Virus record (IMG/VR): IMGVR_UViG_2663762996_000003
Location: 1 to 15,128 of that record
DNA length: 15,128 bases
Direction: 5' to 3' (one strand)
Source of the DNA: a virus
Lineage: Duplodnaviria; Heunggongvirae; Uroviricota; Caudoviricetes
Shown here: piece by piece, positions 257 through 728 of the stretch
Numbering within the stretch: the stretch's first letter is position 1
How the letters are laid out: each line of letters opens with the position of its first letter
Position numbers and translations under genes: made by a program
Notes under the pieces: model-generated
Database searches by the model: none
Seen by the model: the letters and a program-made list of their open reading frames with translations, nothing else
What the model was told of the DNA's origin: nothing

Positions 257-607
257 ATGCCATCACTAATCCCACGTGCCTGCCGTAAGCGTGGATGTGC
301 AGGTACAACCACAGACAGTTCGGGTTACTGCGATAAACATCGCGGTGAAGGCTGGGTGCAGCACCAGCGCGGACTGAGCCGCCACCAGCGTGGCTATGGC
401 TCAAAATGGACGGTGATTCGTGCCCGTATTCTGAAGCGCGATAAAGGTCTGTGTCAGTTGTGTCTGCGTGTCGGTGTGGTGAGCGAGGCGAAAACCGTCG
501 ACCACATCATCCCGAAAGCGCATGGCGGAACAGACGCAGACAGCAACCTGCAGAGTCTGTGCTGGCCCTGCCATAAAGCGAAAACAGCGCGCGAACGAAT
601 CCGGTGA
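257..607 (+). CDS. HNH endonuclease, phage packaging-associated
   Basis: 116 aa with paired Cys motifs (CRKRGC...YCDKH) and an HNH core (DHIIPKAHGG...N...CWPCHKAK). It sits immediately upstream of the terminase genes as in HK97-like phages. SD-like GAGG lies upstream of the ATG. Confidence 0.85.
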   Translation: MPSLIPRACRKRGCAGTTTDSSGYCDKHRGEGWVQHQRGLSRHQRGYGSKWTVIRARILKRDKGLCQLCLRVGVVSEAKTVDHIIPKAHGGTDADSNLQSLCWPCHKAKTARERIR

Positions 608-625
608 TAATTATTCTCACTTGTA

Positions 626-690
626 GGGAGGGGCGGGGCAAATCCCTGTGACCTGACGTCTTCCGGACTGCCCGCCCCATCGTTTTTTTA
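626..690. other. GC-rich interrupted inverted repeat followed by a T-run; candidate cos/packaging site region or atypical terminator
   Basis: GGGGCGGGGCA (630-640) is nearly the reverse complement of TGCCCGCCCC (669-678), separated by a 28-nt spacer and followed by a T7 run (683-689). It lies between the HNH and small terminase genes, where HK97-type cos sites are located. Confidence 0.25.
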
Positions 691-728
691 TACCCGCGAA
701 AAATGAAATTTAACCAGGAGTGCCGCAT

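Follow-up and report, generated by a model that had tools for sequence, protein, structure and literature searches.

The arrangement of an HNH endonuclease gene, a cohesive-end site (cos) and the terminase genes reportedly follows a logic set out by Kala et al. in 2014, and Juhala (2000) is said to be a source on the HK97 cos/terminase system. The ends of HK97 DNA are 3' overhangs of 10 nt, and cleavage of cos by the HK97 large terminase is stimulated in vitro by the HNH protein of the phage, gp74 (Hawkins 2022, PMC9410871; Chechik 2024, PMC11331095). For phage SfI, run-off sequencing of virion DNA outward from near the putative ends, compared with the prophage, left a 10-nt gap, 5'-TGCCCGCCCC-3', and cos packaging was concluded (Sun et al. 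2013, PMC3636060); the SfIV paper reports the same cos for SfI, SfII, SfIV and SfV (Jakhetia et al. 2013, PMC3851460). Here we analyse a comparable locus in a 15,128-nt stretch of viral DNA (IMG/VR record IMGVR_UViG_2663762996_000003, positions 1 to 15,128; hereafter the window, meaning the whole stretch). An initial annotation had listed in it an HNH gene, a GC-rich interrupted inverted repeat, a T-run and the gene for a P27-family small terminase (TerS), and had proposed that they form a cos packaging module. Each of these features was recovered, and the module is supported by identity to the SfI cos, by the annotated cos site of phage P27 and by alignment to the end of HK97 DNA.

Location and sequence of the cohesive end

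Window positions 669-678 read TGCCCGCCCC, identical to the SfI cos. The SfI record, which was linearised on purpose so that cos stands last, ends in ...GGACTGCCCGCCCC, and this end aligns to window position 678. A BLAST search against phage records found SfI, SfII, SfIV and SfV to be 97-99% identical to the window across terS, and the region to be common also to the Stx2e phage P27, to Salmonella ST64B and to Klebsiella prophages. The P27 record (AJ298298) carries a misc_feature, 'cos-site', at 21806-21815, whose sequence, CGCCCGCCCC, aligns to the same ten columns as window 669-678. As in the SfI/SfV/P27-type cos, a 10-nt end of the form (T/C)GCCCGCCCC lies between the HNH gene and terS.

The comparison with known HK97-family cos sites that had been suggested as a check points to the same position. 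The HK97 10-nt end, CGCCGCCAAA, occupies the same place relative to an upstream box that HK97 and the window share. The HK97 record ends in ...GGGCAGGGGGGGGGATCAAATC-N24-GACCGCCGCCAAA and restarts with GTTTGAATTTAACGCTAACCCGATTTTTTTAG, and its end is homologous to window 678. Anchored at the cut, the two sequences align without gaps, with 25 of 41 positions identical from -75 to -35, a score that none of 20000 shuffles reached. The contigs of HK97, HK022 and L101 (another complete phage) end exactly at the cut that the box predicts. Such contig ends, together with the fixed ends that relatives have at this site, are not the pattern of headful (pac) packaging.

We conclude that window 604-728 is, with a probability of about 0.9, the cos site of an HK97-like temperate phage of the SfV/SfI/P27 type, here in prophage form. 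Both the location and the sequence of the cohesive end are shown by its identity to the ends of relatives mapped by experiment. In this way, a very common type of enterobacterial prophage can be given its virion genome ends, packaging direction and map origin without experiment. The cos of this phage group was already known from work published in 2002-2013, and the finding, though correct, is ordinary and adds nothing new about cos packaging in general. Our literature search for cos sequence strings returned unrelated matches only, and that on the P27 cos returned nothing useful.

Conserved sub-sites and a proposed packaging cycle

We collected the loci that surround relatives of the window TerS, HK97 gp74, the P27 TerS and one Klebsiella TerS, and located the G-rich and AAATC boxes in them. 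The layout was constant in 246 loci (118-167 distinct sequences, by the length compared), which cover the HK97, SfV, P27 and Klebsiella types. Numbered from the cut, it consists of a G-rich box (G-box) at -53 to -42, (T/G)CAAATC at -41 to -35, a variable spacer, GAC[CT]G at -13 to -9 and a C-rich 10-mer, the types of which among the loci are CGCCGCCAAA, TGCCCGCCCC, TGCCCGCCTC, CGCCGCCTCA and CGCCCGCCCC. Among 145 unique sequences picked solely by the G-box and AAATC, 130 have GAC[CT]G at -13 to -9. The GTGATAATTATTCTCAC segment further upstream is also kept in the SfV, P27 and Klebsiella types.

The cohesive end itself varies. Its variant TGCCCGCCTC, with the ninth base changed from C to T (window 677), is common: it is found, alongside the same TerS family, in L058, L088, L093 and some 30 more loci. 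Overhang variation falls mostly in the 3' half (-4 to -1), and GAC^YGCC, in which the caret marks the nick, is fixed. In lambda likewise, one half of the cohesive end tolerates change (PMC4669245).

A scan with a degenerate pattern, using one genome per species, returned at least 120 stretches; among the 120 listed, about 70 were estimated to be chance matches, and 31 have an HNH gene upstream and TerS/TerL downstream. These flanked loci, at least 31 in number, come from Citrobacter, Mangrovibacter, Proteus, Morganella, Xenorhabdus, Kluyvera, Budvicia, Atlantibacter and one Martelella. Outside Enterobacterales, the matches listed include G-box/TCAAATC-N21-GACCGCC with an upstream HNH gene in the alphaproteobacterium Martelella alba (L352). 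This locus and two others (L391, L394) combine the G-box/TCAAATC architecture with other downstream halves.

In every HNH-associated cos examined (HK97, SfV, P27, Klebsiella, Proteus/Morganella and Xenorhabdus types), G-box/TCAAATC stands exactly 34 nt upstream of the cut, and it is conserved whatever the small-terminase family or the overhang sequence. We tentatively propose, at slightly less than an even chance, that the G-box and TCAAATC (626-644) form an undescribed, TerS-independent cos sub-site that serves as a docking or termination signal for TerL/HNH and is the counterpart of cosQ, and that GAC^YG is the HNH nick site. By analogy, the 626-644 element would be recognised by TerL/HNH and is positioned like lambda cosQ. 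The portions of the HK97 literature cited here define only a TerS site, at +15 to +29 (PMC11331095).

The 40 bp before the G-box of HK97 (L092, 39658-39698, compared with window 604-644) resemble the 3' end and stop of the HNH gene in the SfV and Klebsiella types (ATCAAATGAGAATGAATCGCA versus ATCAAATGATATCGATTCTCA). Either HK97 may have gained an insertion between its HNH gene and cos, or the HNH stop of the others may overlap a conserved DNA signal.

The HNH protein can be read directly from its gene. It has a zinc ribbon (C9-x4-C14, C25-x2-H28), the residues D82-H83, N97 and H106, and the pairs C66-x2-C69 and C102-x2-C105; an N-terminal zinc ribbon and a C-terminal HNH with [CxxC]2 are the features of Group 1 zinc-ribbon HNH proteins. 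It is 34% identical to HK97 gp74, and its best match among solved structures is the GVE2 HNH (5h0m, E=1.1e-12, full length). The gene lies directly upstream of cos and terS, as in the HK97-like module. We presume that it encodes a Group 1 functional analogue of gp74, acting as a cofactor of cos cleavage or as a nickase. N.phiGamma and GVE2 N.phiE2 are strand-specific nickases that cut CG^GT, which is AC^CG on the complementary strand (PMC3592412), and the conserved GAC^YG is placed exactly where the bottom-strand nick must fall to give a 10-nt 3' end. In a simple model, HNH would make the bottom-strand nick at GAC^TG and the TerL nuclease the top-strand nick; such a division of the nicks between HNH and TerL was raised as an option by the HK97 authors (PMC11331095). 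The 2013 paper by Xu and Gupta drew no link between the nick site and cos ends (PMC3592412).

To the right of the cut, the sequence follows the type of TerS: TTTTTATACCCGCGAAAAATGAAATTTAA occurs with the TerS family of the window, CACCCGCGAAATTAAAAA with the P27 TerS, CTAACCCGATTTTTTT with the HK97 TerS and CACATCGCCGCAGGTTAGAAAAC with a TerS, 26-30% identical, of Proteus and Morganella. The minimal site of HK97 TerS, CTAACCCGATTTTTT at +15 to +29, comprises a recognised G and an A-tract (PMC11331095). Homology and position suggest that the window TerS binds at about 683-704, that is, to the T-run and ACCCGCGAAAAAT.

The cos cut is also a mosaic joint, in that recombinants join the left half of one type to the right half of another exactly there. 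Locus L197 has an SfV-type left half through TGCCCGCCCC and a P27-type right half and TerS, and in L141 an HK97-type left half meets another right half. Loci whose TerS is closely related to that of the window hardly differ to the right of about 662, and their left half varies with the HNH allele.

These elements can be placed in a packaging cycle, the steps of which we propose from homology and position. TerS would bind concatemeric DNA just right of the cut, at about 683-704, and would position TerL; TerL and HNH would then nick 10 bp apart, the top strand at 678/679 and the bottom strand at 669/668. The products would be 10-nt 3' cohesive ends, TGCCCGCCCC-3' on the HNH side and GGGGCGGGCA-3' on the terS side. 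We infer the 3' polarity from the 3' overhangs of HK97 and from the SfI run-off gap: protruding 3' ends are favoured because the SfI run-off reads show a gap, as recessed 5' ends produce, and not an overlap. Packaging would proceed rightward from terS and stop at the next cos, which the motor would reach from the HNH side, meeting first the G-box/CAAATC, in a cosQ-like or docking role, then the cut and then bound terminase.

As a comparative by-product, these data give a putative sub-site map for HNH-dependent cos phages, a modest lead. It has four parts: G-box/TCAAATC on the upstream side, GAC^YG where the bottom strand would be nicked, the variable 3' half of the overhang and the downstream box specific to the TerS type. 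The map could guide in-vitro packaging work with HK97 on the division of nicks between TerL and HNH and on termination signalling, and the cut as a recombination joint bears on predicting which helper packages which prophages and satellites.

Prophage context and competing explanations

The window corresponds to the late region of a prophage of enterobacteria (Table 1). Its HK97-type large terminase, portal, S78 protease and capsid genes are all present, and its TerL matches HK97 TerL (6z6d, E=3.8e-26). Comparison of the window TerS with HK97 gp1 by BLASTP, by phmmer against PDB, and with Pfam and PHROGs gave no match. The tail module has matches to HK97-gp10_like, tail tube, Phage_TAC_1, tail protein T, the HK97/lambda tape measure and a minor tail protein. 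This tail is of siphovirus type, whereas SfI and SfV, the nearest relatives in cos and terminase, have been described as Myoviridae, which suggests that the prophage is a head/tail mosaic. Over window 1-4000 the identity to complete E. coli genomes is at best only about 92%, and Shigella phages match the terS-terL part at 97-99%; a Shigella or a less usual E. coli strain is the probable source.

Table 1. Features of the window, in window coordinates; positions with a sign are counted from the predicted cut.
Feature	Position	Strand	Remarks
Rz lysis gene, 3' end	26-214		
HNH endonuclease gene	257-607	+	116 aa; Pfam HNH PF01844, E=1.6e-16
Upstream conserved segment GTGATAATTATTCTCAC	604-620		about -75 to -59 from cut; overlaps HNH stop codon; part of extended cos left half
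Intergenic region HNH/terS	608-728		121 nt
G-box (626-638) and CAAATC (639-644)	626-644		includes left arm of inverted repeat; most conserved cos sub-site; 34 nt from cut
Variable spacer	645-664		poor conservation between cos types, length kept
GAC^TG	666-670		spans predicted bottom-strand nick (668/669); conserved GAC^YG
Cohesive end TGCCCGCCCC (cosN equivalent)	669-678	+	right arm of inverted repeat; identity to mapped SfI cos
T7 run (683-689) and ATACCCGCGAAAAAT (690-704, +12 to +26)	683-704		predicted TerS binding site, cosB-like
Small terminase TerS, P27 family	729-1223	+	PF05119 Terminase_4, E=3.7e-20
Large terminase TerL (ATPase and RNase-H-like nuclease), HK97 type	1220-2953	+	Pfam TerL_ATPase, TerL_nuclease
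Portal	3056-4387		Pfam Phage_portal
IS4 transposase InsG ORF	4697-6025		
S78 prohead protease	6093-6779		Pfam Peptidase_S78
HK97-fold capsid	6794-7999		Pfam Phage_capsid
Tail module, lambda/HK97 siphovirus type	8900-14761		after connector and completion proteins; ends with 1081-aa tape measure

Several points weigh against the cos assignment or against parts of it. The ends have been mapped in relatives only, and for the virion DNA of this prophage itself we infer them from sequence. The start of the SfV record lies 17 nt to the left of the end mapped for SfI, and not every published origin is a physical end. HK97 gp74 is reported to be non-specific (PMC3592412), and the window site, ACTG, is one base off ACCG. 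Finally, an IS4 remnant lies in the head-gene operon, and the prophage may have lost particle production.

Regarding the record starts, that of SfV (U82619) begins at TCCGGACTGCCCGCCCC, window 661/662, that of SfII begins around window 604-608, and in ST64B the split falls at 713/714. These differing starts imply that record origins in this phage group are conventions and not termini.

The IS4 remnant bears on whether the cos is in use. It is rather unlikely, though a serious alternative, that the site is a cos by descent, inert in a defective prophage, with relevance only where a helper phage that shares its packaging specificity uses it as a substrate. A 5'-truncated IS4, flanked by a 386-bp duplication, does separate the portal and protease genes, and no exact counterpart of the window was found among complete E. 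coli genomes or species-representative genomes; yet the duplication preserves both interrupted genes, the HNH, TerS, TerL, portal, protease, capsid and tail open reading frames (ORFs) are all full length, and viable phages carry an identical cos region.

Homology to IS4 extends over about 4662-6038 (in the window 4275-6424 region), and the left end is apparently short by about 45-50 bp, from a full length that we take to be 1426 bp. The flanking direct duplication is of phage DNA (4275-4660 = 6039-6424, about 99%), and the target duplication of IS4, at 11-13 bp, is far shorter. Besides leaving the portal and protease genes intact, the duplication adds a truncated protease copy (ORF 4329-4757, Peptidase_S78 residues 26-111). 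The IS4/phage junction had no exact match in species-representative genomes. The arrangement may reflect a true rearrangement, or it may be an artefact of assembly.

For the cos reading, the weight of the inverted-repeat region comes from its homology to experimentally mapped cos sites and not from repeat statistics. The repeat is real, with perfect 8/8 pairing of GGGGCGGG (630-637) with CCCGCCCC (671-678) across 33 nt, and bulging of G638 lets CA 639-640 pair with TG 669-670, which reproduces the arms 630-640 and 669-678 of the initial annotation. It is statistically unremarkable alone: among 2000 shuffles of the 121-nt intergenic region that preserved dinucleotides, 7.5% contained a perfect repeat of at least 8 nt (loop up to 60), as did 22 of 251 window tiles, and the z-scores of the hairpin fold are -2.2 as DNA and -1.0 as RNA.

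It was nonetheless worth considering that the repeat is functional in the SfV-type lineage, as a cruciform or hairpin or as half-sites of a dimeric protein, for cos recognition or cleavage. The 8-bp match is kept in 20 of 24 unique cos regions of the TGCCCGCCCC type, the DNA fold falls below its shuffles, and imperfect G-run/C-run dyads can be drawn by eye in the HK97 and Klebsiella types, in shifted registers. We examined in-register pairing, with arm-shuffle controls, on 118 unique cos regions and on at least 31 loci of further species. Pairing was 8/8 only for GGGGCGGG with CCCGCCCC, in 16 of the 118, and elsewhere 3-6 of 8. G-box variants (GGGGGAGG, GGGGGTGG, GGGGGGGA) were seen with right arms unchanged, and overhang variants (CCTC, CCTTA, CCTTG, CAAA) with G-boxes unchanged; each arm thus varied opposite an unchanged partner, and there was no compensatory change. 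The best stems of other cos types were no better than shuffles of arm composition (fraction at least as good 0.84, 0.77 and 0.36). With a repeat of this size also expected in 7.5% of shuffles, as above, a functional repeat is improbable, and we rejected a hairpin or cruciform as a conserved element on the pairing and shuffle controls. Arm complementarity would instead be a lineage-specific coincidence of a conserved G-run opposite a C-rich end, perfect in the SfV lineage, with no required hairpin or cruciform. The earlier proposal that the inverted repeat marks cos holds in that its right arm is the cohesive end; the complementarity between the arms is lineage-specific and is not conserved.

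The last reading, an intrinsic terminator of the lysis/HNH transcript instead of or besides cos, is very improbable and was rejected: 4 nt separate a GC-rich 8+2 bp stem from the T7 run (683-689) behind it, and the stem is part of the minimum-free-energy RNA fold, but a consensus scan of 1-1500 finds no terminator (shuffles average 1.9), the loop is 28-33 nt where terminators have 3-8 nt, the RNA fold is weak, 1-1500 holds no Rfam family at E<=1, relatives of the HK97, Klebsiella, CCTC and Proteus types have the same layout but not the stem, T/A-tracts co-vary with TerS type as expected of a protein site, and the head genes downstream need transcription through the region, late transcription in lambdoid operons passing into the head genes. 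The T-run is probably better read as part of the predicted TerS binding region than as a terminator tail.

Comparison with described systems

The closest described sites are the cos of SfI, SfII, SfIV and SfV, which have the same 10-nt end, 50 bp upstream of terS, flanks 97-100% identical from the cut through terS and the same HNH-cos-terS-terL gene order. Compared with SfV, the HNH allele and left flank of the window are P27-like (93.7% to P27 over 257-701), and the bulged base of the window is G, not T. Compared with SfI, which has Myoviridae morphology (PMC3636060), the window has a tail of lambda/HK97 siphovirus type and an IS4 remnant. The phiP27 cos-site is identical at 9 of 10 bases and shares the G-box GGGGCGGG, CAAATC and the upstream HNH gene; it differs in its first overhang base (C, not T), its downstream half, CACCCGCGAAATTAAAAATTTCAGG, and its TerS allele.

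HK97 shares with the window a 10-nt end, G-box+TCAAATC 34 nt from the cut, a left nick site of the GAC^YG form (GAC^CG in HK97), a downstream ACCCG motif with an A/T-tract, homologous TerL and HNH proteins and HK97-type head genes. Unlike the window, it has the overhang CGCCGCCAAA, no 8-bp inverted repeat (3/8 in register), a gp74 without the N-terminal zinc ribbon ('Group 3') and an HNH gene that ends 319 bp before the cut.

The domain layout of the window HNH, and the position of its gene next to cos and terminase, are those of N.phiGamma and GVE2 N.phiE2 (PMC3592412; PDB 5h0m). AC^CG nicking is reported for those enzymes; for the window enzyme the specificity is a prediction, at a site that reads ACTG, and the match of GAC^YG to the specificity of HNH nickases may offer a modest lead.

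Lambda cos (cosQ-cosN-cosB; PMC4669245) is unlike the window in having 12-nt 5' overhangs made by gpA alone, no HNH, a cosB of about 120 bp with IHF sites and no sequence similarity, and we claim the window as an analogy to it only, not as a member. The tripartite logic is the same in both, with an upstream termination element, a nick site and a downstream TerS-binding region beside terS.

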